A stretch of 64,000 nucleotides of DNA from a virus (IMGVR_UViG_3300023184_000037:81138-145137); one strand, 5' to 3'; counted from the stretch's first letter, positions 6,507 to 27,671 are shown. A program made the numbers and translations. The notes: generated from the sequence alone by a model not told the origin.

Positions 6507-7943
6507 ATGGAATTCTTAGAAGCATTAAGACAAGAGGACATGGTAACTGAAAATGGAATGGCAACTAATTCGACATCGTTGAATGCATGTGTTGACCTTT
6601 TCTTTAACATTGGAGCTATGAGAGGACAAGACAAACAACGTTTGATTGCTACTTTCTCTAAAGCATTTAATGAAGACCCTAAGCGTGCTATGAAACTCCT
6701 TTTTTGGGCTAGAGATGTTAGAGGTGGAGCTGGAGAACGTCAAGTTTTCAAGGACATTTTAGTTTATTTGGCAGAAAACCATGATTTGGTACTTAAACCA
6801 AACTTACACTTAATTTCAGAGTATGGTCGTTGGGATGACTTACTAGCCCTAGCAGGAACATATCTTGAAAAGGAAGCATTCACCCTAATTTCTGATGCAA
6901 TCATCAACGAAAATGGTTTATGTGCTAAATGGATGCCACGTAAAGGAGCAGTAGCTGAAAAGTTACGTAAATTTACTGGAATGTCCCCAAAGCAGTACAG
7001 AAAATCTCTTGTAGGTTTAACTAATGTTGTTGAAACTAAAATGTGTGCTAAAGACTGGAATTCTATCGATTTCGGTAAATTACCATCTGTCGCTTCAGCA
7101 AGATACCAAAAAGCATTTGGTAAAAACGCATACGAAAGTTATTCAGCCTATATTGCTTCTCTTGTAAAAGGTGAGGCTAAAATTAATGCAGGTGCAGTTT
7201 ACCCATACGATGTGACTAAGTCTCTAAATTATGGAAACTCAAGCGTAGCAAACGAACAATGGAAAGCTCTTCCAAACTATATGGAAGGCGCAAACGATAT
7301 GATTTTACCAGTGGTTGATGTCTCAGGTTCTATGTCTTGCCCAGCAGGCGGTAGTAAATCTGTAACATGTATGGATGTTGCAATCTCATTAGGTCTTTAT
7401 ATTTCTGAAAGAAATGAAGGTCCTTTCAAAGATGCATTCATTACTTTCTCAAGTAAACCACAGTTACAAGTATTAAGTGGCTCATTGAGTGATCGCTACA
7501 CACAGATGTCAAACTCTGATTGGGGAATGTCAACGGATCTTGAGGCGACCTTCAAATTGATTTTAAATCAGGCCACTAAGCATAAACTATCGCAAGATAA
7601 AATGCCAAATAAAATCCTAATCCTATCGGATATGGAATTTAATGCAGCAGTTTATACTGGAGGTTATAGTACTAGATTTAAAGGTGGAACTTGGAATCCA
7701 ACTGCTCAGCAAATGATTGAGCAAATGTATGCTGACGCAGGTTACAAAGTACCTCAAATTGTTTACTGGAATATTCAATCCCGAAATGGAGGAGTACCAG
7801 TTGCATTTGATACTCAAGGAACTGCACTGGTTTCAGGATTCTCTCCAGCAATTATGACAAGTTTACTTGGAGGAGACATAGAATCTCCACAACAAATAAT
7901 GGATAAAACAATTTTGAGTGAGAGATACGCTCCAATTGTATAA
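6507..7943 (+). CDS. DUF2828-family TROVE/Ro60-like protein with C-terminal vWA domain
   Basis: TENG, RDVRGGAGER, YGRWDDL, AKWMPR; MIDAS DVSGSM, ILSDMEF, VYWNI, LVSGFSP. Confidence 0.85.
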   Translation: MEFLEALRQEDMVTENGMATNSTSLNACVDLFFNIGAMRGQDKQRLIATFSKAFNEDPKRAMKLLFWARDVRGGAGERQVFKDILVYLAENHDLVLKPNLHLISEYGRWDDLLALAGTYLEKEAFTLISDAIINENGLCAKWMPRKGAVAEKLRKFTGMSPKQYRKSLVGLTNVVETKMCAKDWNSIDFGKLPSVASARYQKAFGKNAYESYSAYIASLVKGEAKINAGAVYPYDVTKSLNYGNSSVANEQWKALPNYMEGANDMILPVVDVSGSMSCPAGGSKSVTCMDVAISLGLYISERNEGPFKDAFITFSSKPQLQVLSGSLSDRYTQMSNSDWGMSTDLEATFKLILNQATKHKLSQDKMPNKILILSDMEFNAAVYTGGYSTRFKGGTWNPTAQQMIEQMYADAGYKVPQIVYWNIQSRNGGVPVAFDTQGTALVSGFSPAIMTSLLGGDIESPQQIMDKTILSERYAPIV

Positions 7944-7959
7944 GATATATAAAGAAAAT

Positions 7960-8017
7960 TGGTTCCTTACAGCAATCCATAAAAAGCAATTATAAACTAC
8001 GCAAATATTGGAACCAG
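7960..8017 (+). ncRNA. Putative short Y-RNA-like ncRNA 1
   Basis: TGGTTCC (7960-7966) pairs with GGAACCA (8010-8016); TTACAGCAA follows the 5' arm; late promoter at 7944. Confidence 0.55.
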
Positions 8018-8018
8018 G

Positions 8019-8256
8019 CGGATCGGTACAGCAAAAAGTACACACACAGCTATGATAGCCAACGTATTACAGAGATAGTATCAAGTATAACAGGCAAATG
8101 GAAGTCTAACCAGGATAAAAAATAGACAAACGTCATACCACCCCAATAGGTGATAAGTAGGATGGGTCGAAGTTTAGTAGACGCTCGCGAAAATCAAAGC
8201 CGAAGACGTTAAACAGGGTTATTCCGCCGGGAAGAAAATCACGAAAAACGATCCCG
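8019..8256 (+). ncRNA. Putative long Y-RNA-like ncRNA 2
   Basis: GGATCG (8020-8025) pairs with CGATCC (8249-8254); GTACAGCAA follows the 5' arm; several internal hairpins; no credible ORF; terminator follows. Confidence 0.55.
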
Positions 8257-8265
8257 TAATAATTT

Positions 8266-8310
8266 AATCCTGACAAAATTGTTAATAACTTTTTTAGTCA
8301 GGATTTTTTT
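8266..8310 (+). terminator. Intrinsic terminator closing the ncRNA unit
   Basis: AATCCTGAC/GTCAGGATT stem plus T run. Confidence 0.6.
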
Positions 8311-8327
8311 ATGTCGATTTTTTGTAT

Positions 8328-8385
8328 TATATTTACATATCTAATTAAAGTGCATAAAAAACAAAACCAATATATAACATATAAT
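8328..8385 (+). promoter_or_regulatory. Early (TATATTTAC) and middle-type (AAAAC-N17-TATAAT) promoters of the modification cluster
   Basis: TATATTTAC at 8328-8336; AAAAC at 8358-8362; TATAAT at 8380-8385. Confidence 0.6.
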
Positions 8386-8400
8386 ACTTAAACGAAACTT

Positions 8401-8676
8401 ATGAATATTTTAGACGAAGCAAGCGGAATTGTTAATAACCGCTCAGAAGAAGCAGACAGACAGTATGGTCCTTTCTCAGAAGGTATGGACAGAGCTGCAA
8501 TGATTTTTAGAGGTATGACCGGAATCGAAGTTACCGGAGAACACATGTTTAAAGCACTAGTTGCACTTAAATTCAGTAGAGAATCGTACAATCACAAGCG
8601 TGATAATTTATTAGATGCAGTTGCATATATCCAAGGATTAGACAACTACATTAACGAAAAGCAAAACAATGGTTAA
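8401..8676 (+). CDS. DUF6378-like small helical protein (nucleotide-modification associated)
   Basis: ILDEA..IV..R...YG....LK.SRE...HKRDN..D...Y pattern. Confidence 0.65.
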   Translation: MNILDEASGIVNNRSEEADRQYGPFSEGMDRAAMIFRGMTGIEVTGEHMFKALVALKFSRESYNHKRDNLLDAVAYIQGLDNYINEKQNNG

Positions 8677-9718
8677 TATTTACACAGTTTTAGATTCATT
8701 AAAGGGTAAGAAGATTGCAATTGATGATGTTGTAACTACTTATAGTTCAAAGAAGGCCAGCCATAAAAGTGCATGGGCTTTCTTATTAGCTAATCAATTA
8801 AGGTCCCTAGGACTGGATGCTGAAGTACTTACCAAGTCAGAAGATATTCACCAATATGATGTTTGGTTAGTAGCACTTCCAATGGAATTCCAAGGTTCTT
8901 ATAACCTATTTGGTGGAGCCACTGACGAACCAGCAGAAAGGATTAAAAGATTTTTAGATTTTGGTGGAACAATATATTGTTTGAATCGAGAAATGCCAGA
9001 TGTTGGAGCATTCGCGCAAAGTCGAATGAAATCATGTTCACCCTTATGGGCATCTCTTAATGTTGAAGCACTTACAAAGAAGAGTAAAGAAACCGAAACA
9101 ATTGAATTGAAATTGGCTTCCGGAACTTTTGTCTTAGGTGATTCCCATTCAGTTTCAGTATACCAACCGGGCGCAAATATTAGCCGAAATGATGGTAAAA
9201 CCCTATTTGGAGTTATGAAAGAGGGAATGACATCTTATATTCCTGAAGGAACTGACCATCTAATTACATACTTTGGAAACATTGATGTTCGTCATCACTT
9301 ATGCCGACAAGAAAAACCAGTCGACGCGGTTAAAGCCCTTGTAAAAAATTACTTTGAGCACTTACAATCACTAGGAATTCAAAAGAATACCGTTGTAAAA
9401 TTATTGCCTATCGAATTTGAAGGTCGCAGAATTCCAAAAACTGGGTACTATAAAGGTACTCCATTTATCGGAACTCAACGAGAACGCACTCAATTGATGG
9501 AAATATTTAACGAAGAGGTTGACAAACTCTCGGCTATATATAATATGAACGTAATCGAATGGCCGATTCATTGGTACTCAGCAGACCCACAATATTTTGC
9601 CGATACTTACATGGAGAAACCAGGTTCCGTTCACCTATCTAGAGAGTTTTACCAATATGATTTCGAGACGTCCGAAAAAAATGTTGTGCTAAAGAAAACT
9701 ATTAACACTCTTTTTTAA
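8669..9718 (+). CDS. Hybrid protein: beta-glucosyltransferase-like N-terminal domain plus SGNH-hydrolase-like domain
   Basis: KIAI...YDVWLV...SYNLFGG...IYCL; GDSH, GNID, SVHL; C-terminal INTLF. Confidence 0.5.
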   Translation: MVNIYTVLDSLKGKKIAIDDVVTTYSSKKASHKSAWAFLLANQLRSLGLDAEVLTKSEDIHQYDVWLVALPMEFQGSYNLFGGATDEPAERIKRFLDFGGTIYCLNREMPDVGAFAQSRMKSCSPLWASLNVEALTKKSKETETIELKLASGTFVLGDSHSVSVYQPGANISRNDGKTLFGVMKEGMTSYIPEGTDHLITYFGNIDVRHHLCRQEKPVDAVKALVKNYFEHLQSLGIQKNTVVKLLPIEFEGRRIPKTGYYKGTPFIGTQRERTQLMEIFNEEVDKLSAIYNMNVIEWPIHWYSADPQYFADTYMEKPGSVHLSREFYQYDFETSEKNVVLKKTINTLF

Positions 9719-9729
9719 AACAAAATAAT

Positions 9730-10314
9730 ATGAAAAACATTTTTTTAGATTGTGGAACCCATCTATGTGAAGGGTTACTAGAATTTCAGGCTAAAGGAGT
9801 TATTGATGATACATTTGAGATTCATACCTTTGAGGCAAATCCTGAATGTAAAATAGAAGAACGTGTAAAGAAAATACCCTTAAATATTACTCCACATAAT
9901 GTGGCAGTATGGATTGAGGACGGATTCGTATTGTTTAACCAAGAAAATCATAAAAAGAGTAATTGCGGTTCCCCGACTGATGGACAATCCGATATAGATG
10001 GATGGGCATCTTCGATTAATGGAATAGGATTTTACTGGCCAGGATATGAGACCCATGTCCAAGTTCCAAGTATTGATTTTAGCAAGTTTGTTTCTGAGCT
10101 ACCCAAAGATTCAAACATAATATGTAAAATGGATATTGAAGGTTCTGAATTCTCAGTCCTAAGAAAGATGATAGAAGAGGGTACAATTAGTAACATAAAG
10201 GAAATCTATATTGAGTTCCATGAAAGAGCTATGCCATCTGAATCTGTTGAATCCCGTCAAAAAATAGTTAATGACATTACAAACCTAGGTGTAGTAGTAC
10301 ATGAATGGTTTTAA
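9730..10314 (+). CDS. FkbM-family SAM-dependent methyltransferase
   Basis: FLDCGTH, FEANP, KMDIEGSE, IEFH. Confidence 0.85.
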   Translation: MKNIFLDCGTHLCEGLLEFQAKGVIDDTFEIHTFEANPECKIEERVKKIPLNITPHNVAVWIEDGFVLFNQENHKKSNCGSPTDGQSDIDGWASSINGIGFYWPGYETHVQVPSIDFSKFVSELPKDSNIICKMDIEGSEFSVLRKMIEEGTISNIKEIYIEFHERAMPSESVESRQKIVNDITNLGVVVHEWF

Positions 10315-10370
10315 TTTGAAACTTTTTAAATAAAACTAGTATAAAAATTATAAATTAAATTTTAAGAAAA

Positions 10371-11558
10371 ATGAACAAAATTAAAGTAGGAATTATCGGA
10401 ACAGGAAATTGCGCTAAATCATTAGTTGAAGGTGTACAATATTACACTGAAAATCCAAATGATATTACCGGAATGATGAAGTCCGATATTGGAGGTTACA
10501 AAGCAGAAAACATCGAGTTTGTATGTGGATTCGAAATTGATGAACGTAAAGTTAATCAAACATTAGGATACGCTCTTAAACAAAGACCAAACTCTGCATG
10601 GGATATTGTTGACGTAATTCATTCTGAGGCTCCAGTTTATGAGGCTCCAGTTATTGATGGTTATGCAGCCCTTATGGATAACTATCCAGAACAAAATCGT
10701 TTCTTAGTTGACGAAAAACTAAGAAATTCTACGGACATGAATCGTACTGATTGGACTCCAAAAAAATCACGTGAATGGAAAGACTCAATCATTGCTAAAT
10801 TAAAAGAGCATGGTGTTGAAGTACTTATTAACTACTTACCAGTAGGTTCACAAAAAACAACTGAATTCTGGGCTGAAATTTGCCTTGAAACAGGAATCTC
10901 TTTAGTAAACTGTATTCCAGTTTTTATCGCATCTGACCCAGCTTGGGAGCAAAGATTTATCGATGCTGGAATTCCAATTATCGGAGATGATATGCGTTCT
11001 CAATTTGGAGCAAGTATCCTTTCTCAAATGTTACAAGAACTTGCCTTTGAAAGAGGACATCATGTAAAAGCGCACATCCAAAGAAATGTTGGAGGTAACA
11101 CAGATTTCTTAAACATGGAAGACAAATCTCGTCTAGCATCTAAAAAGATTTCTAAAGAAAACGTAATTCGTGCCCAAAACGAAATTAGAGGAATCTCAAC
11201 TGAAGATTCATTCTTACACGCTGGTCCTTCTGAGTATATTGCATTTTATGGCGATAACAAAGTTGCTAACTTCCGTTTAGAACTTACAGGATTCGGTGGA
11301 GCACCAGTTCTTTTTGATGCTCAATTAAGTGTACAAGACTCTCCAAACTCAGCTGGAGTAGTAATCGATGCAGTTCGTTATTTAAGAGTTGCAAGAGAAT
11401 TAGGAGTTGTAGGAGCATTAAGAGGTCCTTCAGCGTTTACTCAAAAAACCCCACCAGATCAAATGATGTTTGCTGATGCTGTTTATGAGTGTACTGAATT
11501 GGCTGCAAGACGCTTAACAGATTCTACAAGAAAACAGTTAGTTGCTAAAAAAGCCTAA
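10371..11558 (+). CDS. ino1: Myo-inositol-1-phosphate synthase
   Basis: GTGNCAKSLVEG, NYLPVGS, GDDMRSQFGA, GGNTDFLNM, SKKISK, DSPNSAG. Confidence 0.95.
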   Translation: MNKIKVGIIGTGNCAKSLVEGVQYYTENPNDITGMMKSDIGGYKAENIEFVCGFEIDERKVNQTLGYALKQRPNSAWDIVDVIHSEAPVYEAPVIDGYAALMDNYPEQNRFLVDEKLRNSTDMNRTDWTPKKSREWKDSIIAKLKEHGVEVLINYLPVGSQKTTEFWAEICLETGISLVNCIPVFIASDPAWEQRFIDAGIPIIGDDMRSQFGASILSQMLQELAFERGHHVKAHIQRNVGGNTDFLNMEDKSRLASKKISKENVIRAQNEIRGISTEDSFLHAGPSEYIAFYGDNKVANFRLELTGFGGAPVLFDAQLSVQDSPNSAGVVIDAVRYLRVARELGVVGALRGPSAFTQKTPPDQMMFADAVYECTELAARRLTDSTRKQLVAKKA

Positions 11559-11573
11559 CAATCCAATTAACCC

Positions 11574-11603
11574 AAAGGGGAGAGAATAACTCTCCCTTTT
11601 TTT
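11574..11603 (+). terminator. Intrinsic terminator
   Basis: GGGAGAG/CTCTCCC hairpin plus T run. Confidence 0.7.
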
Positions 11604-11618
11604 ATCAAAACTTTACGC

Positions 11619-12017
11619 ATGTTAAACATATTTAAAACCAAAAAACCAGTCGATATCTATGGATACGATTTTGATGGAGTAATTTCAATTGGAATAACTC
11701 CAAGAGCAACCACAGATTTTGTTATTACCGGAAGATGTATTGACGAACAAGACGAAATCCGTGCAATCCTTAAAGAGAGAGGAATTAAATGCAAAGTGTA
11801 TTTTAATCCAATGACTCTTGAAGAACGTGGAAACCATACAGTTGCAGCTAGAAGGCATTCTGGAAATCACAAAGCAAAAACCCTTAATCGTTTAAAAGAT
11901 GAAGGTGTTATTGTTTCACGTTTTTTTGAAGATGACCCAATCCAATACCAAATTATCCAGGAAAACTGTCCTGATGTTGAATTGGTTAACATTGTATCAA
12001 AATTAGTACAGAAATAA
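11619..12017 (+). CDS. Capless HAD-superfamily phosphatase
   Basis: Motif I DFDGV, II ITGR, III K (NHKA), IV FEDD. Confidence 0.85.
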   Translation: MLNIFKTKKPVDIYGYDFDGVISIGITPRATTDFVITGRCIDEQDEIRAILKERGIKCKVYFNPMTLEERGNHTVAARRHSGNHKAKTLNRLKDEGVIVSRFFEDDPIQYQIIQENCPDVELVNIVSKLVQK

Positions 12018-12018
12018 G

Positions 12019-12720
12019 ATGAGTAGGGTTAAACTTCCTGAGTTTCCAATTTCTAAGTTAGAAAAAACTCGTCTTAAAAAGAAATACGTAAAAATATTGG
12101 GTGCAACCGAAGGTGTTGACGATAGTATGATTGGCGAAAGTATTGCTAATTACTTAATTCCTGAAATTGATTATAGGGGAATGGTTTGCCTTGACCTTGG
12201 AGCCAACATTGGAGCTTTTACTCAAATTGCGCTGGATGCCGGAGCAAGTAAAGTTTGTACTGTTGAATGCGATGCCAGAAACTTTGCAAAACTCGAGTCA
12301 ACTTATAAAAATGATGATTACGTTGATTTGGTTTATGCTGCCGTTTCCGGATTGCCTAATAAAACCTTAAAAATATTTAAGTCTGCTAGTCAAAACGCAC
12401 ATTGCTCAACATCAATTGAGAGCAAAATGAAGTTCAGCGAATATGATGAGGTCGAAAACATACACCTAAAAAAGTTACTAAAGAAATACAACCCAGATAT
12501 TATCAAGATTGATATTGAATCTGCCGAGTATACCCTAATCGATACTTTATTAGATTATGAACCTAAATATTTATTTATTGAATTACACGCAGGAAAACAT
12601 AGGGCTGAAATGTATCAAGTACTGGAAAGATTAGAGTCGATTTATCCGCATTCAAGAGTGGTTCCATTGATTATATTTACCGACAATTTGATAGCGCACG
12701 ACTGCTTCTTTAAAAAATAA
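12019..12720 (+). CDS. FkbM-family SAM-dependent methyltransferase
   Basis: LDLGANIGAF, VECD, KIDIESAE, IELH. Confidence 0.85.
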   Translation: MSRVKLPEFPISKLEKTRLKKKYVKILGATEGVDDSMIGESIANYLIPEIDYRGMVCLDLGANIGAFTQIALDAGASKVCTVECDARNFAKLESTYKNDDYVDLVYAAVSGLPNKTLKIFKSASQNAHCSTSIESKMKFSEYDEVENIHLKKLLKKYNPDIIKIDIESAEYTLIDTLLDYEPKYLFIELHAGKHRAEMYQVLERLESIYPHSRVVPLIIFTDNLIAHDCFFKK

Positions 12721-12728
12721 AATATAAA

Positions 12729-13916
12729 ATGACTTCAAATAAACAACTGCTTGAGATGGATTCTCAAGCACTGTTGGATTTAATACCAACAGAAAAAAGA
12801 CAATTGATCCGAGATTTTGTTCATGAAATGAATCGAAGAGAATATGAGGTTCGTTTTGCAAAAACATGTACCTTTGATACTTTTAGACACAGAGAGGGTA
12901 CTGGAGAGAACATCTTTGGCCATGGATTTATAGTAGAGGGACGTTCAGTTCCATACTTCCACCCAAACCGTTCATTCCACGATGAGATTATTTGGTTAAA
13001 TGAAAATGTGTTCTACAATCCAGAATGTACTTTTGAAGACCGATTAATTAATGCAGCAATTGTAAAGTTCTATGGTCCGTCGAATACAATTAGTCTATTA
13101 ACACACGACACTGGATTTCCATTCGTTAAATATGACCGATTGGTTAACGACGAGAAGTACGTTCTGCAGTGTATGGTTAATATGGAGAATGCAAGAAGGC
13201 GTGGTGAAAAGATTTATGGTACTACAGAATTACGAACAAGTCTACAGACCGAATCGAGAAATCATGCAAGGGTTCTTAAAACTCCTTATGATGTATTAAT
13301 TGGTGCCGAACCGGATCCAACCAGACAGAGTCGAACAAGTGATATGTTTTTTTGGTTTACCCTACTAGGTCCACGTTTTGCAGAATTCTATGCCAAAAAA
13401 CCGACGATGGAAGAGTCGTTTAACTTTTTAACATCACATCGAGGAATTGGAAACTATTATGGTTACCATTTTAGTACCAACCTTGCCCGAATGCCAGAAA
13501 TCGGAACGCCAGACCTATTGCGACCAGGCAGCCTATCTGGAAATCTTAACGAAGACGATGACTTTGTTGCACCTGGAGTTGGAGCGATGACCACAATCAA
13601 CTGGTTCTATGAACACTTAGGTTTTTCAATCTCGTCAGAAGTAGGAGCCAAGGTTATCAGACAAATCAGGGACACTCAACATGAATTCTTTGATTTTACT
13701 GGAGAAAATCTTGACTATTTAGAAACAATCACTGAGACCGGAAGATTTACAACGTTTGGTACAGAAATTAGTTGTTGTCAGTTTGGTGTATTTTTACGAT
13801 TGAGAGATAGTAAAAAGATGGCCCTAAACCGAGCAAATGCTCCAATTTCTAAAGAACAAATTGGTGAATCATGCGAAGTAGATGAACCAACATTTAAAAG
13901 TTCATGTTTATTTTAA
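12729..13916 (+). CDS. aGPT-Pplase1 / amino acid:DNA transferase-like base hypermodification enzyme (HhH-glycosylase fold)
   Basis: GIGNYYGYH..NL, EDDDFVAPGVGA and terminal EISCCQF match the GxG.F...D..ENDF..PGPGA...E..LCE(F/Y) pattern; C-terminal SCLF. Confidence 0.7.
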   Translation: MTSNKQLLEMDSQALLDLIPTEKRQLIRDFVHEMNRREYEVRFAKTCTFDTFRHREGTGENIFGHGFIVEGRSVPYFHPNRSFHDEIIWLNENVFYNPECTFEDRLINAAIVKFYGPSNTISLLTHDTGFPFVKYDRLVNDEKYVLQCMVNMENARRRGEKIYGTTELRTSLQTESRNHARVLKTPYDVLIGAEPDPTRQSRTSDMFFWFTLLGPRFAEFYAKKPTMEESFNFLTSHRGIGNYYGYHFSTNLARMPEIGTPDLLRPGSLSGNLNEDDDFVAPGVGAMTTINWFYEHLGFSISSEVGAKVIRQIRDTQHEFFDFTGENLDYLETITETGRFTTFGTEISCCQFGVFLRLRDSKKMALNRANAPISKEQIGESCEVDEPTFKSSCLF

Positions 13917-13958
13917 ACAAGTTCAAAATTACCTATAAAACTATTATATAAAAAACTT

Positions 13959-14426
13959 ATGGCAAATATAGACAATCAATGTAAAGACCTGGAAGTTAAA
14001 GACTTCTATTCAGATTCGACCACCCACCTGGCGGATATTATGGAAAACCAAAAGAAAATGCAGGAGCAGACTTATGGCTTTAATTTTGAAAATATGTCAA
14101 TTAGAGAAATTATGAACTTCTGGCATGTTAATACACATGCAGTAGTTGATGAAATTCACGAGATGACAGATGCCCTTGGAGGTATTAAAGATGGTAGTGG
14201 AAATGCAGTTTGGAAATACTGGAAAAAAGACTTTTCAAAGTATGAAACTATGAAAATTAGCGATCTATCTGAAGAGGACAAAAAAGAACTTTATATGGAA
14301 TGGGTAGACATACTACACTTCTTTATAAATTATGCGTCTTCAATCGGATTAGATGCAAAAACAGCTTACAATTATTACTTCGCGAAAGCAGAAGAAAATG
14401 TCGCAAGACAACAACGAGGGTATTAA
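13959..14426 (+). CDS. Dimeric all-alpha dUTPase/dCTPase (T4 gp56-like)
   Basis: DEIHE, WKYWK, EWVDILHF, KAEENVARQQRGY. Confidence 0.85.
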   Translation: MANIDNQCKDLEVKDFYSDSTTHLADIMENQKKMQEQTYGFNFENMSIREIMNFWHVNTHAVVDEIHEMTDALGGIKDGSGNAVWKYWKKDFSKYETMKISDLSEEDKKELYMEWVDILHFFINYASSIGLDAKTAYNYYFAKAEENVARQQRGY

Positions 14427-14469: not shown

Positions 14470-15339
14470 ATGAAAGCATTTATATATCAATGGACTAATA
14501 ATCTAAACGGAAAGAAATACATCGGATCACACATTGGAGAGCCTGAAGACGGTTATGCCGGTTCAGGCTCTTATTTTAAGAAAGCATTTAATAAATATAA
14601 AGATTTTTTTACTAGAGAAATTTTAGAAACTATAGATGGAGAAAATGTCTATGATAGAATTAAAATACTCGAAGAATCATATTTACAAAAAGTAGATGCT
14701 GCTAATAATTCCAATTATTATAATATCACAAATTCATATTATGGCGGTAATGTATATCAAGGGTTATCAATAGATGATAAAAAGAAAATGATAGAAGGTC
14801 GGACCAATGCCGCAAAAAATGATAGATTAAAAAATCCTCAAAAATATGAAGACATTGCTAAAAAGAAAAGTGCAATTCAAAGAGAAAAAGGTAAAGACGT
14901 TTATCAATTTACAAAAGATGGACAATTTATTGCAAAATATTCATGTTTAGAAGAAGCACATAAAATAACTAATATATCAAAAGGAAATTTACATTGCGCG
15001 CTTAATGCTAGCAGAAATTTTGCAAGTGGATTTAGATGGTCTTATAAAAATATACCAAATGATTTAATTCCACCTAAAAAACGTAATCATAAAAGTACTG
15101 GAAAGCAAAAGAATCCATCTAAACATATCAATATTATATATGTTCAAATAATTCAATGTGATTTAAAAGGAAATGAAATTCACACATGGAATAATAAAAA
15201 TGAAATTCAAGAACATTTAGGTATTAGTGCACAAATGATTAATCATGCGATAAATGGTAGAGGTAAAAATAATACCGGAGAATATAAAGGATTTATATGG
15301 AAAAAAGGTAAACAAATTAAAACGACAAAATATAATTAA
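14470..15339 (+). mobile_element. Free-standing GIY-YIG homing endonuclease (Seg-like) with NUMOD1 DNA-binding modules
   Basis: FIYQWTN..NGKKYIGSH, YAGSG, YYNI; VYQFTKDGQFI and IQCDLKGNEI modules. Confidence 0.9.
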
Positions 15340-15363: not shown

Positions 15364-16761
15364 ATGATTTTAGACATCGAACAGCGTGAAAAAGATGTTA
15401 TCATTTCATACTACAATGACAAAGGAGAAGTAGCATTCAAACAATACCCAGTGGATAAATTCCAAAATTGGTATGTTTGTGATGACAAAGACAAAGCGGC
15501 CAGTCCAGAGTATAAAAACTGGGATGGCCGTCCTGTTAAACTAGGATATGGAAAACAATTCAATAAGTTTTCCATTCTTTATTTTTTAGATAATCTTTCA
15601 GAGAAAGACAAAAAAGATTTAACAGCATATAATATGCCAAAAACTTATTTTGTCGATATTGAAACTGAAATTGTTGACGGCTTTCCAAAAGCCGAAGAGG
15701 CCAAAAGTAGAATTCTTTCATTCTCAATAATTACTCCAGACCGTAAAGCAATCGTTTTAGGTTTAGAGGATATGGCATCGGATAAAATCCAAAAGATTCA
15801 AGACGATACCAATGAGTACTTTAAAGATTTTGATATGGACTGGGAATTTAAGTACCATAAGTTTAAATCAGAGTATGACATGGTGTACACATTCTTAATG
15901 AAATTCTTACCAAAGTTTCCAATGATGACTGGATGGAATTTTATTAACTATGACTGGCAATATATTGTTAATCGATGCAAAAGACTTCAAATCGACATCA
16001 AAGAAATTGGTATGACAAATTCAATCGATCATACTGATGGCCGACCTCTTCATATCGGAATTCTTGACTACATGCAATTGTATGACAAATATGACCGAAC
16101 TGTAAAAGTTAAAGAATCCAACTCTTTGGATTATGTTTCTAGTCAAGTCTTGAACGTGAACAAAATCAAGTTCACTGGCTCACTACAGGACTTATACCGA
16201 GATAACTTTGTCAAGTACATATATTACAATGTGGTCGATTCAGTGCTTGTATACTACATTGACCAGAAGTTGAAGTCGATGGAGGTACTATTAACCTTGG
16301 CAAACATTACAAATATGCCATTGTATAAAGCAAGTTCTCCAGTGGCAGTTACTGAGGCGATTATGGCCAGAAAACTTGCCGAGCAAGGAATGCGAATTGG
16401 AAGCGAAGAGAAAAATGATAGTCAAAAAGATGGACAATATGCTGGAGCATTTGTAAAAGAACCAATCCTTGGATTCTATGAAGGTGTAAGTGCATTTGAC
16501 TTTGCGTCACTATATCCTTCGATCATGAGACAGTTCAATATATCTCCAGATGCATACATCGAAAAGATTTATAAAAGTGAAATTGAAGAACGTAGAAAAA
16601 ATAAAGAGGTTATTGTTTGTGATAATGGTGTAGTATATAAGACCGAAGATTCAATCTTAAGAAAAATATTAAGTGACCTATATGCGCAGCGTAAAGATTA
16701 TAAAAAAACTTCTTATGAATATTTCACAAAAGCTGACCGGTTGAAAAAACTGCTCCAATAA
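15364..16761 (+). CDS. gp43A: Family B DNA polymerase, N-terminal part (3'-5' exonuclease plus motif A)
   Basis: DIETE, GWNFINYD, YNVVD, YAGAFV, DFASLYPSIM; ends in the fingers domain. Confidence 0.9.
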   Translation: MILDIEQREKDVIISYYNDKGEVAFKQYPVDKFQNWYVCDDKDKAASPEYKNWDGRPVKLGYGKQFNKFSILYFLDNLSEKDKKDLTAYNMPKTYFVDIETEIVDGFPKAEEAKSRILSFSIITPDRKAIVLGLEDMASDKIQKIQDDTNEYFKDFDMDWEFKYHKFKSEYDMVYTFLMKFLPKFPMMTGWNFINYDWQYIVNRCKRLQIDIKEIGMTNSIDHTDGRPLHIGILDYMQLYDKYDRTVKVKESNSLDYVSSQVLNVNKIKFTGSLQDLYRDNFVKYIYYNVVDSVLVYYIDQKLKSMEVLLTLANITNMPLYKASSPVAVTEAIMARKLAEQGMRIGSEEKNDSQKDGQYAGAFVKEPILGFYEGVSAFDFASLYPSIMRQFNISPDAYIEKIYKSEIEERRKNKEVIVCDNGVVYKTEDSILRKILSDLYAQRKDYKKTSYEYFTKADRLKKLLQ

Positions 16762-23062: not shown

Positions 23063-24259
23063 ATGACAATCGACGAATTAATACTAAAACCAGAGAGTGA
23101 GTTATCACAGGATGAAATTAAAATCTTGGTTGAGCATTATTCTATGTTGTCAGCAAAGTTCGGTGCCTATGAGCAAGCAGTAAAAGTAATGCTTAACTCT
23201 ATTTATGGTGCCTTTGGAAACAAATGGTTTCACTTTTTTAATATAGACATCGCAGAATCTATCACCTTACAGGGACAGTCTGCGATTCTATATTCTGAAA
23301 AGATTCTAAACAAATATTTTCAAGAGTTTTGGAATAAAGACCGAGCAGTTCATGAGTTTTTTAACATTCAAGTTAAGAACAAATTGGTTCGACCATCAGT
23401 AGTTTATATTGATACAGATTCATGTTACGTACAGTTTGAAGAGATGTATGAATCTATTGAATGGCTTGGAGACAAGCTAACAATTGACCAATTCATTATG
23501 AAATTGTACAACTTCAGACTTAAAGATTATATTTTTAAGTGCATGGAGAAATATGCGGAAGCAACCAATACTGAAAACTTCCTCCAGTTTGAATTGGAAA
23601 CTATTGCATACTCTGGAATTTGGTTGGCTAAGAAAAAATACTTGCAGAATCTCGCATGGGACGATAAAATTGGAATTGATGACAGACACCCATCTCTTAA
23701 GAAGGTAAAAACTATCGGATTTGATACAATTCAAAGTTCAACTCCAGCTCTCGCAAGAAAGCAGTTGACGGAGATTCTTAAACTGATTCTTTCAGAAAAA
23801 CCTACCGCTTCTTTATTGAAGAGACTTGTAGATTATTTGAAACAATGTAAAAAAGAATTTCAATTAGCAAGTGTTGATGAGATATGTTTTAATAAAAGAA
23901 CAAACAATCTTGAAAAATATATCGTAGATGATACGGTAGAATTTCAATATGGTTTAAAATGTCCGCCAAACGTAAAAGCCGCAGGTTTCTATAATTTCTT
24001 AATGAATCAAAATCCAAAGTTTAAGAACAAATATAAGATGATTGGTAACGGTGAAAAACTGAAACTATATCACTGTAAACATGCAACTTGCGAGATATTT
24101 GCATACCAACCTGGAGCTCACCCTTATGAAATTGCACCGACAGTTGACTATGAAATGCAATTTGAAAAGAGTGTTATAGACCCATTGAACCGTGTTTTAA
24201 CCGCAGTTGGACTGCACACATTAAATAGAAACTTAATTTATTCAACCTCATTATTTTAA
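23063..24259 (+). CDS. gp43B: Family B DNA polymerase, C-terminal part (motifs B, C and thumb)
   Basis: KVMLNSIYGAFG, ITLQGQ, YIDTDS, AKKKY; C-terminal STSLF. Confidence 0.92.
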   Translation: MTIDELILKPESELSQDEIKILVEHYSMLSAKFGAYEQAVKVMLNSIYGAFGNKWFHFFNIDIAESITLQGQSAILYSEKILNKYFQEFWNKDRAVHEFFNIQVKNKLVRPSVVYIDTDSCYVQFEEMYESIEWLGDKLTIDQFIMKLYNFRLKDYIFKCMEKYAEATNTENFLQFELETIAYSGIWLAKKKYLQNLAWDDKIGIDDRHPSLKKVKTIGFDTIQSSTPALARKQLTEILKLILSEKPTASLLKRLVDYLKQCKKEFQLASVDEICFNKRTNNLEKYIVDDTVEFQYGLKCPPNVKAAGFYNFLMNQNPKFKNKYKMIGNGEKLKLYHCKHATCEIFAYQPGAHPYEIAPTVDYEMQFEKSVIDPLNRVLTAVGLHTLNRNLIYSTSLF

Positions 24260-27227: not shown

Positions 27228-27671
27228 ATGAGAACACAAAGAGATAAAATATTCGACAATACATTTGCTGAGAGTGAATTTGAATTAGACAGTTCATTTT
27301 CTTTCGATATTGCACCAAGCTACTTAGACAACCGTGACGAAGAGGATAAAATTGAAACGCAAATAATTATTACTAAAATCCACGAGTTAATTGAATCTTC
27401 TCGATTCAAACACTTTAATAACATCAATGAATTTAATGAGACTGTTAAATTAAAAAAGAATGAAATTAACGAAATCTATGAATTTATTTCAGATGAGCTC
27501 CGACCAAACCATTCAATCATTGAAGTATTTTCGGAATTGTGTGATTACTTTAATGTAAATCCAACAAAATTCTACCAGTCACTAGGAAACAAATTTAAAG
27601 AGGAGCTAATCGAGGTATTAGACAAGAAGACAAACGTACTAAAGAAAAAGCATATAAATAGATTATTCTAA
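27228..27671 (+). CDS. Putative late transcription coactivator (gp33-like)
   Basis: Acidic N-terminus, helical IIEVFSELCDYFNVNP...KEEL core, C-terminal INRLF. Confidence 0.5.
   Translation: MRTQRDKIFDNTFAESEFELDSSFSFDIAPSYLDNRDEEDKIETQIIITKIHELIESSRFKHFNNINEFNETVKLKKNEINEIYEFISDELRPNHSIIEVFSELCDYFNVNPTKFYQSLGNKFKEELIEVLDKKTNVLKKKHINRLF

Follow-up and report, generated by a model that had tools for sequence, protein, structure and literature searches.

Phages M6, ViI, PaMx11 and PhiW-14 hypermodify thymidine with a 5-hmdU DNA kinase and an amino-acid:DNA transferase (AADT, formerly aGPT-Pplase2), which transfers a host amino acid or polyamine post-replicatively to the 5-hydroxymethyl carbon of the pyrimidine. 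Catalysis by one such enzyme, PUGT, involves Glu243, Thr244 and Cys247, with the cysteine attacking C6 (PMC11472151, PMC8989533), and ViI gp247 uses the hydroxyl of serine as its nucleophile to form an ether (PMC8989533). The T-even phages decorate the hydroxymethyl group of 5-hydroxymethylcytosine (5hmC) in a pathway of gp42, gp56 and alpha- and beta-glucosyltransferases. The RB69 and DLP3 clusters for arabinosylated 5-hydroxycytosine encode a modified-dCMP synthase along with a small polyol/sugar pathway that includes a small HAD-type phosphatase; with the D169N change, their thymidylate-synthase (TS) homologues yield 5-hydroxy-dCMP, and the clusters use an NDP-sugar and glycosyltransferases (PMC13326640). 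A further relative is ORF233c of Aeromonas phages 31 and 44RR2.8t (795 aa, phrog_17781), which is annotated as hypothetical and is a direct homologue, with 39-41% identity, of two genes described below (genes 2 and 7) in fused form.

The locus compared here with these systems comes from a large uncultured lake phage contig, IMGVR_UViG_3300023184_000037, of which we analyzed a window of 64,000 nt (contig 81138-145137). The contig is about 46% complete, and genes may be missing for the source phage itself. Eight adjacent ORFs, all on the plus strand, occupy positions 8401-14426 of the window, in the positions given by an earlier note on this DNA, and a split family-B polymerase and RNR genes lie just downstream, where that note had placed a DNA polymerase region. 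On balance, we favor the view that the eight genes are a DNA-hypermodification cassette built on 5hmC and attaching inositol. Like the AADT systems, this cassette would act after replication, placing a group on the 5-hydroxymethyl carbon of a pyrimidine, and its gene 7 has in common with PaMx11 gp46 an HhH-glycosylase-like fold and, judged by spacing in the sequence, a putative Glu-x3-Cys motif. Unlike those systems, the predicted base is 5hmC rather than 5hmU, no 5-hmdU kinase was found and the partner is a BGT-N-like/SGNH protein, gene 7 belongs to the Pfam family HMUDK_hel rather than ADDT, and a cyclitol made by the phage is proposed as nucleophile. With the T-even pathway the locus shares a gp42-type signature, a gp56 homologue and the proposed decoration of the hydroxymethyl group of 5hmC, and there is a weak likeness between the N-domain of gene 2 and the N-domain with which T4 BGT binds its acceptor. 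In contrast to that pathway, no UDP-sugar-binding domain or glycosyltransferase is present here, and where BGT has its donor-binding half, gene 2 has an SGNH domain; an appended inositol would lack an anomeric carbon, so that it could not be attached by glycosyl transfer as in the T-even phages. As in RB69 and DLP3, the phage would encode a modified-dCMP synthase as well as a small pathway for the appended polyol, with a small HAD-type phosphatase, but its TS homologue keeps D169, and the NDP-sugar and glycosyltransferases are a trait of those clusters. Aeromonas phage 31 also has a gp42-type hydroxymethylase, whereas Ino1 and HAD genes are missing there and in 44RR2.8t.

The promoter-like pattern AAAAC-N-TATAWA-N-TATAAW occurs on the plus strand at 8363, 10332 and 16760 (3 versus 0.17 expected from shuffles), with 0 matches on the minus strand. 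Its first copy, AAAACCAATATATAACATATAAT (8363..8385), was read directly from the sequence upstream of gene 1, and the second (10332..10354) is upstream of gene 4. A common promoter motif had been claimed earlier at 8358 and 10318; a shared promoter-like motif exists, at positions near but not identical to these. A terminator-like hairpin with a T-run (11575..11605, plus strand; aaaggggagag-aataa-ctctccc-ttttttt), also read directly, follows gene 4.

Gene 4 (10371..11558) had been called a myo-inositol-1-phosphate (inositol-3-phosphate) synthase (Ino1/MIPS), and the matches agree. It scores with PF01658 (1.2e-22, 80.5 bits) and with M. tuberculosis Ino1 (1gr0, 1.6e-77), and it retains the active-site motifs GDDxxSQ, NVGGNxDFLNM, SKKISK and DSPNSAG. 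Its score with TIGR03450 is 286 bits, under the equivalog cut-off of 638, and its match to the five-membered-cyclitol synthase 6k96 (9e-41) is far weaker than that to 1gr0. Judged by these matches, the inositol-phosphate synthase encoded by gene 4 is a typical one. Gene 5 (11619..12017) encodes a minimal capless HAD phosphatase of 132 aa. Despite the lack of any Pfam or PDB sequence match, its four HAD motifs I-IV (D17xD19GV, T37GR, H84K85 and E104DD) are invariant across 13 diverse homologues (alignment A4), which upholds the HAD assignment of the earlier note; there is also a weak match to phrog_415 (PNK phosphatase region). Relatives of gene 5 always follow Ino1. Genes 4 and 5 are, by homology, the standard kit for converting glucose-6-phosphate to myo-inositol, with the substrate of gene 5 predicted.

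Genes 3 (9730..10314) and 6 (12019..12720) both encode FkbM-family SAM methyltransferases, in line with earlier calls, as both exceed the cut-offs of PF05050 (1.3e-10 and 2.4e-12, respectively) and TIGR01444 (7.4e-15 and 7.2e-17). No BLAST similarity was found between the two. Gene 3 is accessory, being present in few close relatives only, while relatives of gene 6 recur in loci that pair a gene 7-type (HEL) protein with gene 2, in some AADT-type loci and in one kinase+AADT inositol locus.

The association of these genes extends well beyond this contig. Among 80 loci with relatives of gene 7, almost all also have Ino1, HAD and gene 2; their gene orders number at least four, and identities fall as low as 25-45%. 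The co-occurrence of ino1, HAD and transferase, which the earlier note had named as a check, is borne out. A minimal cassette, Ino1-HAD-[gene 7-gene 2 fusion], was found as well. Of the 31 Ino1 loci in a non-redundant viral set, 30 have a DNA-base-modifying enzyme (HEL+gene 2, AADT or DpdA/QueC) within 6 kb, and Ino1 and HAD also occur inside classical 5-HMUDK+AADT (kinase) and Tet_JBP+AADT clusters of other phages. These data bear on a different explanation, in which genes 2 and 7 modify hydroxymethylcytosine with a host-derived or simple acyl group while Ino1, HAD and FkbM make free (methyl-)inositol for use as an osmolyte, as a lipid head group, in metabolic rewiring or in anti-defence, and adjacency reflects shared expression timing only. 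Such independence would fit the promoter-like motif and terminator-like hairpin that gene 4 has of its own, the occurrence of Ino1 and HAD in some loci without gene 7 or gene 2, and the Aeromonas 31/44RR2.8t fusion without Ino1, which indicates that inositol made by the phage is no strict requirement for the transferase pair. It is difficult to reconcile with the persistence of the linkage through four gene orders at such divergence, with the three-gene cassette, and with the AADT or DpdA/QueC enzymes near Ino1 where genes 7 and 2 are missing. In the Aeromonas phages, moreover, the gene directly upstream of the fusion encodes a YidK/SGLT-like sodium:solute symporter, through which a solute of the same kind could be taken up. 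We consider it unlikely that the inositol stays free.

Gene 7 (12729..13916), the proposed transferase, had been described as aGPT-Pplase1-like, a family call that we correct. Its only Pfam match at E<=0.01 (hmmscan) is HMUDK_hel (PF18723; residues 89-357, 1e-7, 32.1 bits, above the cut-off of 25; the genome search gave 28.3 bits), with no aGPT-Pplase family, and PF18724 (ADDT, the AADT/aGPT-Pplase2 profile) has no match anywhere on the contig. An hhalign comparison of the family (alignment A1) with the Cr30 AADT was not significant. The fold did turn out as predicted: with the model of gene 7 (pLDDT 90.3), the best of 48,161 chains was PUGT (8z2m_A, PaMx11 gp46; Z 9.6, a modest value for a helical protein, rmsd 4.5, 232 aligned), and HhH-GPD glycosylases came next (Z 5-7.5). 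The HhH-glycosylase-like fold is present and closest to an aGPT-Pplase2/AADT enzyme, and HMUDK_hel is a more likely assignment than aGPT-Pplase1. Matches in BFVD include the SP10 5-hmdU DNA kinase and two 'Pplase1' proteins (E 4e-3 and 9.5e-3), which rank under several HMUDK_hel proteins. Near the C-terminus, E346-I-x-x-C350 is invariant, and in sequence comparison its E-x3-C spacing equals that of E243/C247 in PUGT. The motif GxE[IV]xxCQ is kept in distant homologues, and the Glu and Cys are conserved in every HEL protein that stands alone, with RP13 ORF120 and the Aeromonas fusion counted among them; iterated local profiles unite gene 7, its gene-order-D paralogue and RP13 ORF120 in one set. 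As far as the model and alignments can tell, gene 7 resembles amino-acid:DNA transferases both in its fold and in its Glu-x3-Cys motif.

Gene 2 (8669..9718) combines a Rossmann-like N-domain with an SGNH-fold C-domain (model pLDDT 89.6). Residues 145-338 resemble many SGNH esterases and O-acetyltransferases (Z 10-12.5), and GDSH157-160, GNID203-206 and H322 are invariant, which accounts for the Ser, Asn and His of blocks I, III and V, respectively; block V has Ser where Asp is usual, and the match to PF00657 (17.6 bits) is under the cut-off. In hhalign, residues 39-132 show a moderate likeness to T4 BGT 25-122 (probability 65%, E 6e-5), and a PDB profile search returned no BGT match. Of the BGT-N/SGNH hybrid proposed earlier, the SGNH half is supported (Z 12.5, invariant residues) and the BGT-N half is tentative. 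In the whole-protein fold search, C-domain matches filled the list. A full GT-B glucosyltransferase was rejected for gene 2 because its C-domain is SGNH and not the UDP-glucose-binding GT-B Rossmann domain. Gene 2 is the obligate partner of gene 7, and fusions of the two, in both orders, exist in other phages. The two proteins also have C-terminal tails (...TINTLF in gene 2; ...SSCLF, at the end of a disordered stretch, in gene 7) like those of the polymerase PolB (...STSLF) and the flap nuclease FEN (...KINTLF) of this phage, and these tails are conserved across families. Since genes 2 and 7 bear the polymerase/flap nuclease tail, both proteins probably travel with the sliding clamp. In Aeromonas phage 25, gene 2 occurs by itself, beside a UDP-galactopyranose mutase, an arrangement more in keeping with a decorating esterase/acyltransferase than with an activator.

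The SGNH chemistry of gene 2 would leave room for a reading in which inositol phosphate is only transient, for example as a leaving group or carrier, or is phosphodiester-linked, and the final base is not an inositol ether but, for instance, a diester of inositol phosphate or hydroxymethylcytosine in acylated form. Macromolecule-bound phosphates are frequent substrates of capless (C0) HAD enzymes, and gene 5 could trim inositol phosphate already on DNA. The retention of HAD in most clusters argues for removal of the phosphate, and that FkbM genes turn up beside Ino1 in modules of more than one type fits a decorated ring that is retained; we regard the phosphate-linked or transient forms as distinctly improbable.

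The base to which the inositol would be attached is indicated by a TS homologue, the only one on the contig, which lies outside the window at contig 12337-13191. Its best PDB match is T4 dCMP hydroxymethylase (8e-15 versus 1e-10 for TS), and in E. coli ThyA positions it has L143D, D169 kept and N177D (motif KDFVC...MRSND...LTFD). These are the diagnostic residues of dCMP hydroxymethylases (L143D/E, D169, N177D; PMC13326640). The hydroxymethylase sought elsewhere in the genome is therefore of the T4 gp42 type (dCMP to 5-hm-dCMP), which makes hydroxymethylcytosine rather than hydroxymethyluracil the probable target. The same gp42-type (Asp) signature is present in all of the TS homologues, at least 42, beside HEL+gene 2 modules; the one beside a kinase+AADT module is Asn-type. 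Gene 8 (13959..14426) encodes an all-alpha NTP pyrophosphatase similar to T4 gp56 (BLASTP 2e-19, 34% identity over the C-terminal 97 residues) and to phrog_173 (8e-14), consistent with its earlier designation as a dimeric dUTPase/dCTPase, with the substrate preference predicted. The earlier note had assumed a 5hmU target with kinase action and then displacement of phosphate by the transferase, which we judge highly unlikely: the characterized relatives in the gene 7 superfamily all act on 5-hmdU or 5-PmdU (PMC8989533), Ino1 and HAD occur in true kinase+AADT clusters with an Asn-type hydroxymethylase, and RP13 pairs its HEL protein with an Asn-type TS homologue, but the Asp-type signatures and top gp42 score above, the gp56-like gene 8 and the absence of a 5-hmdU DNA kinase (PF18748) both from the contig (about 46% complete) and from three CheckV-100% relatives speak against it, and phosphate displacement is probably inapplicable here.

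We propose that the eight genes most likely make inositol and attach it to hydroxymethylcytosine of the phage DNA, and that this inositol is probably methylated. The gp42-type TS homologue and the gp56-type dCTPase would replace dCTP with 5-hm-dCTP, while genes 4 and 5 would supply myo-inositol from glucose-6-phosphate. The gene 7 cysteine would add to C6 of hydroxymethylcytosine in DNA, and the hydroxyl would leave either directly or after esterification by gene 2, such acylation substituting for the missing kinase. An inositol hydroxyl could then add to the exocyclic methylene to give ether-linked inosityl-methylcytosine, genes 3 and 6 would O-methylate the ring, and the bulky adduct may shield the phage DNA from host nucleases. 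The covalent adduct is put forward on comparative grounds, from which we infer inositol on the DNA. These comparisons support well the core of the earlier proposal, with inositol from Ino1 and HAD, AADT-like coupling to a hydroxymethyl-pyrimidine and FkbM decoration, while the kinase/phosphate step probably does not belong to it. More tentatively, and with considerable doubt that every part will hold, virion DNA may contain ether-linked O-methylated myo-inosityl-methylcytosine made without a kinase, with clamp-tethered gene 2 esterifying the 5hmC hydroxyl and Cys-dependent gene 7 swapping in inositol, and the same phage-made inositol may feed 5hmU (AADT) and 7-deazaguanine (DpdA) chemistries in other phages. 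We found no paper describing inositol on DNA. If correct, this would be a cyclitol-bearing DNA base of a kind never described, and phage-made inositol would serve at least two further DNA chemistries elsewhere, 5hmU via AADT and 7-deazaguanine via DpdA clusters.

Two observations concern the surroundings of the module. C5-cytosine methylase genes flank it in gene orders B and C, which is odd if all cytosine is replaced. Gene 1 (8401..8676) encodes a 91-aa protein in which the earlier note had recognized DUF6378, confirmed by a match to PF19905 (1.2e-8); in three of the gene orders (A, B and D) its relatives come before gene 2, often directly after the TS homologue.

The window is the terminal 64 kb of a 145,137-bp IMG/VR viral contig, the completeness of which is estimated at ~46% (CheckV). 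Its eight tightly packed plus-strand ORFs of interest were recovered at exactly the coordinates given in an earlier, sequence-only note, between a TROVE/Ro60-like gene on one side and homing endonuclease, split family-B DNA polymerase and ribonucleotide reductase (RNR) genes on the other. The whole cluster had no match among phage records by megablast. Most of the identities suggested in the earlier note were borne out. Gene 1 (8401-8676) encodes a DUF6378 protein, and genes 3 (9730-10314) and 6 (12019-12720) encode FkbM-family methyltransferases that both exceed the curated cut-offs, with no relationship between the two detectable by BLAST. Gene 4 (10371-11558) encodes a typical inositol-phosphate synthase (Ino1), which matches M. 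tuberculosis Ino1 at 1.6e-77 with the active-site motifs kept and matches a five-membered-cyclitol synthase far more weakly. The product of gene 5 (11619-12017) has no Pfam match; it is nevertheless a HAD protein as called, with the four HAD motifs invariant across 13 homologues of 36-46% identity. Gene 8 (13959-14426) is homologous to the T4 gp56 dCTPase/dUTPase (2e-19), in support of the earlier call. Sequence searches of the PDB with genes 2, 5 and 7, as single sequences or profiles, returned nothing meaningful. A promoter-like motif, AAAAC-N-TATAWA-N-TATAAW, occurs three times on the plus strand compared with 0.17 expected, at 8363, 10332 and 16760, ahead of gene 1, Ino1 and the RNR small-subunit gene, respectively. 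A hairpin followed by a T-run lies directly 3' of Ino1.

The earlier note had proposed that Ino1, the HAD protein and an aGPT-Pplase-like transferase place inositol on a hydroxymethyl-pyrimidine, which FkbM and SGNH enzymes then decorate. For gene 7 (12729-13916), the transferase assignment held for fold and motif but not for family, as Pfam places the protein in HMUDK_hel (HEL), which describes the helical domain of 5-hmdU DNA kinases, and not in an aGPT-Pplase family. The predicted model of gene 7 is confident (pLDDT 90). While Foldseek found no match for it in the PDB at E<=0.001, exhaustive alignment against the PDB with VIA-align ranked PaMx11 gp46 (PUGT) first over 232 residues with a Z of 9.6, which is modest for a helical protein, and placed HhH-GPD DNA glycosylases below PUGT. 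In a viral structure library, the matches to the model included the SP10 5-hmdU DNA kinase, two 'Pplase1' proteins and several proteins labelled 'HMUDK helical domain'. PUGT itself belongs to the aGPT-Pplase2 or amino-acid:DNA transferase (AADT) class and acts as a 5-PmdU glycinyltransferase. In PUGT and its relatives, a cysteine attacks C6 of the base, the 5-substituent is expelled and the nucleophile joins the exocyclic methylene; Glu243 and Cys247 are the catalytic residues of PUGT (PMC11472151, PMC8989533). The homologues of gene 7 share an invariant Glu346-x3-Cys350, and the surrounding GxE[IV]xxCQ block persists in homologues whose identity has fallen to 25-45%, as well as in ORF120 of Ralstonia phage RP13 and in an Aeromonas fusion protein. 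We infer from this motif that Glu346 and Cys350 are candidate counterparts of Glu243 and Cys247 in PUGT. By hhalign, gene 7 aligned weakly with RP13 ORF120 and not significantly with the AADT of phage Cr30; the link among these clades was drawn from Pfam, fold and iterated local profiles. An apparent fusion of FkbM with gene 7 (P0241, 720 aa) reads through only if TGA encodes tryptophan and was taken to be two neighbouring genes merged by the gene caller.

The earlier note had described gene 2 (8669-9718) as a hybrid of a BGT-N domain and an SGNH domain. The second half of this description is upheld by the predicted model (pLDDT 90), in which the C-terminal domain adopts the SGNH fold with Z up to 12.5, as well as by the invariant GDSH, GNID and His322. 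The first half fared less well: the N-terminal domain is predicted to be Rossmann-like, and its residues 39-132 align with residues 25-122 of T4 beta-glucosyltransferase at a probability of 65% in profile comparison. The UDP-glucose half of the T4 enzyme is absent from gene 2, and a search of the ESM Atlas with the N-terminal domain gave no usable match.

The co-occurrence suggested in the earlier note was found, in that Ino1, the HAD gene and gene 2 lie near the relatives of gene 7 in nearly all of the 80 IMG/VR loci fetched. These genes occur in different orders. Besides the arrangement in the window (order A), there are TS-g1-...-g2-Ino1-FkbM-HAD-g7-C5 methylase (order B), where TS is a thymidylate synthase homologue and g1, g2 and g7 are genes 1, 2 and 7, and TS...Ino1-(nucleoside deoxyribosyltransferase-like)-HAD-g7-g2-C5 methylase (order C). 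Order D is that of the window with a paralogue (25-27% identity, also PF18723) in place of gene 7. One group of gene 7 loci has a different replicase, Pol III alpha. Genes 2 and 7 are also fused, as g2-g7 in Aeromonas phages 31 and 44RR2.8t and as g7-g2 in a T4-like contig where the cassette is just Ino1-HAD-[g7-g2]. In loci L079-L095 (e.g. L092 9863-10915), Ino1 is 83-90% identical to that of the window and the transferase is the distant paralogue, which is still an HMUDK_hel protein with the ExxxC motif; these sequences suggest that the transferase is exchanged among clusters in a cassette-like manner. In Aeromonas phage 31, which also encodes a gp42-type hydroxymethylase, a 507-aa YidK/SGLT-like sodium:solute symporter gene (L001 5307-6830) lies directly 5' of the g2-g7 fusion. 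Transporters are unusual in phages. As a lead only, this one could import the nucleophile for attachment to DNA in place of synthesis by the phage.

A hydroxymethylase was sought beyond the window, as was a 5-hmdU DNA kinase. The sole TS homologue of the contig (contig positions 12337-13191; L005:1486-2340) is ~69 kb 5' of the window, remote from the modification cluster and flanked by a ClpC-like AAA+ gene and a ClpP gene. In many relatives, a gp42-type hydroxymethylase gene is found directly 5' of the modification cluster. The TS homologue of the contig scored highest with T4 dCMP hydroxymethylase, and it carries L143D, a retained D169 and N177D (E. coli ThyA numbering), which are diagnostic of 5-hydroxymethyl-dCMP synthases (PMC13326640). 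This Asp-type signature was present in every TS homologue found beside the gene 7 and gene 2 module (>42 loci), while the one found beside a kinase and AADT module (n=1) was of the Asn, dUMP type. Together, the TS signature and the gp56 homologue favor 5hmC over 5hmU as the target base. The 5-hmdU DNA kinase profile found no match on the contig at its ~46% completeness, nor in three module-carrying relatives that are 100% complete by CheckV (173, 293 and 360 kb). A C5-cytosine DNA methylase gene adjoins the module where the gene order is B or C (L010 11485-12663; L047 11443-12621; L060 13199-14413), although the neighbouring hydroxymethylase predicts cytosine replacement.

The distribution of Ino1 extends beyond the relatives of gene 7. 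A scan with a single Ino1 sequence gave close relatives only and was replaced by one with a diverse Ino1 alignment, which detected at least 437 Ino1-encoding viral stretches in IMG/VR. Neighbourhoods were counted in fetched viral loci in which Ino1 was flanked by 4 kb or more on both sides, grouped into 31 clusters at 80% identity in a sample biased towards relatives of the window. A DNA-base-modifying enzyme lies within 6 kb of Ino1 in 30 of the 31 clusters and is missing from one. The neighbours were HEL with gene 2 in 14 clusters, DpdA/QueC in eight, AADT in five, AADT with HEL in two and HEL alone in one. AADT-type Ino1 loci include textbook thymidine-hypermodification sets, such as PolA - HEL - 5-hmdU kinase - AADT - (FkbM or TAGT-like) - Ino1 - HAD - Asn-type hydroxymethylase. 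Another AADT-type set, which is also present in the cultured Caulobacter phage Cr30, combines a Tet_JBP dioxygenase with AADT, Ino1 and HAD. In Ralstonia phage RP13, the gene for a HEL protein lies four genes away from Ino1, and HAD and an Asn-type hydroxymethylase are also encoded. In Stenotrophomonas Menderaviruses, Ino1 and HAD genes are inside a FolE-QueC-DpdA-QueE cluster; such 7-deazaguanine clusters contain Ino1 and HAD in L002 (Stenotrophomonas phage Ps15, 6098-11624), L165, L167, L181, L182, L191, L198, L210, L226 and L230. A search of one such genome, that of Ps15, found no gene for TS, AADT or HEL. These clusters hint at an inositol-linked deazaguanine derivative in DpdA/QueC phages. 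Since the Ino1 pattern recurs in three enzymatically unrelated contexts, which is hard to explain otherwise, it argues that inositol feeds DNA modification.

Drawing on the gene identities, co-occurrence, fusions, hydroxymethylase signature and kinase absence established here, we propose a mechanism in which Cys350 of gene 7 would attack C6 of 5hmC in DNA. The 5hmC hydroxyl would depart, either directly or once esterified by gene 2, and a hydroxyl of inositol would join the methylene to form an ether. The model for this ether is phage ViI gp247, which forms one with the hydroxyl of serine (PMC8989533). The FkbM enzymes may O-methylate the inositol ring, and the HAD protein may act on free Ins-1-P or else on a DNA-bound inositol phosphate. 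The role of gene 2 is the weakest step of this mechanism. In Aeromonas phage 25 (L011 2671-5942), where gene 7 is missing, genes for a UDP-galactopyranose mutase and a 358-aa protein lie ahead of a gene 2 homologue, and a decorating acyltransferase or esterase fits this arrangement as well as an activator does. This locus may encode a DNA modification based on galactofuranose in which the SGNH protein is likewise employed.

We class the pathway with the known post-replicative hypermodification of 5-hydroxymethylpyrimidines, to which the adduct inferred here would add unusual features, in that a cyclitol would serve as donor, an AADT-like enzyme would act on cytosine and the partner enzyme would operate without a kinase. 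Full-text literature searches combining inositol or the kinase and transferase names with phage or DNA-modification terms retrieved no paper in which an inositol-bearing DNA base is described, and a search for 44RR with hydroxymethylcytosine retrieved nothing on Aeromonas phage DNA. The domains recorded as co-occurring in recent AADT and 5mYOX neighbourhood surveys include O-methyltransferases, kinases and epimerases; these surveys were absent from the full-text matches for 'inositol'. If the adduct is real, cyclitols would be a new chemical class beside DNA sugars, amino acids, polyamines and deazapurines, AADT-type chemistry would reach cytosine derivatives as well as thymine, and a hydroxymethyl base would be activated independently of a kinase. 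It would also explain the puzzling inositol synthase in many phages, including Cr30, RP13 and the Stenotrophomonas Menderaviruses. Such bases bear on how phages withstand restriction and CRISPR nucleases, on artefacts in virome sequencing and on enzyme tools that label DNA at specific sites. Judged by the Ino1 stretches in IMG/VR, the module is widespread, and it has cultured carriers.

Several proteins encoded in the window share a C-terminal tail, which reads ...STSLF in the C-terminal part of the polymerase, ...KINTLF in the 5'-3' flap exonuclease, ...TINTLF in gene 2 and ...SSCLF in gene 7, where a disordered linker precedes it. Among the 144 ORFs of the contig, only 9 have such a C-terminus, and the tails are kept across the gene 2 and gene 7 families. 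By analogy with T4 clamp clients, the tail looks like a sliding-clamp docking element, and the tailed proteins may be a set of clamp clients. C-termini with the [ST/N]-x-L-F tail are located at 9718, 13916, 17775, 24259, 27671 and 44078; the RNR small subunit and a 147-aa protein (27228-27671) are also among those with the tail.

The TROVE/Ro60-like protein (6507-8312) consists of DUF2828 and DUF7788 and belongs to phrog_850. The ~450 bp after its gene, just 5' of the cluster, contain no plus-strand ORF of at least 50 aa. On the other side of the cluster, the family-B DNA polymerase is encoded by two genes (15364-16761 and 23063-24259) ~6.3 kb apart, between which are the RNR small- and large-subunit genes and an ATP-grasp gene. 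The polymerase is likewise split in the relative L007. A NUMOD1 homing-endonuclease gene (14470-15339) lies between gene 8 and the polymerase, and it looks like a mobile insertion because in L007 the polymerase directly follows gene 8.
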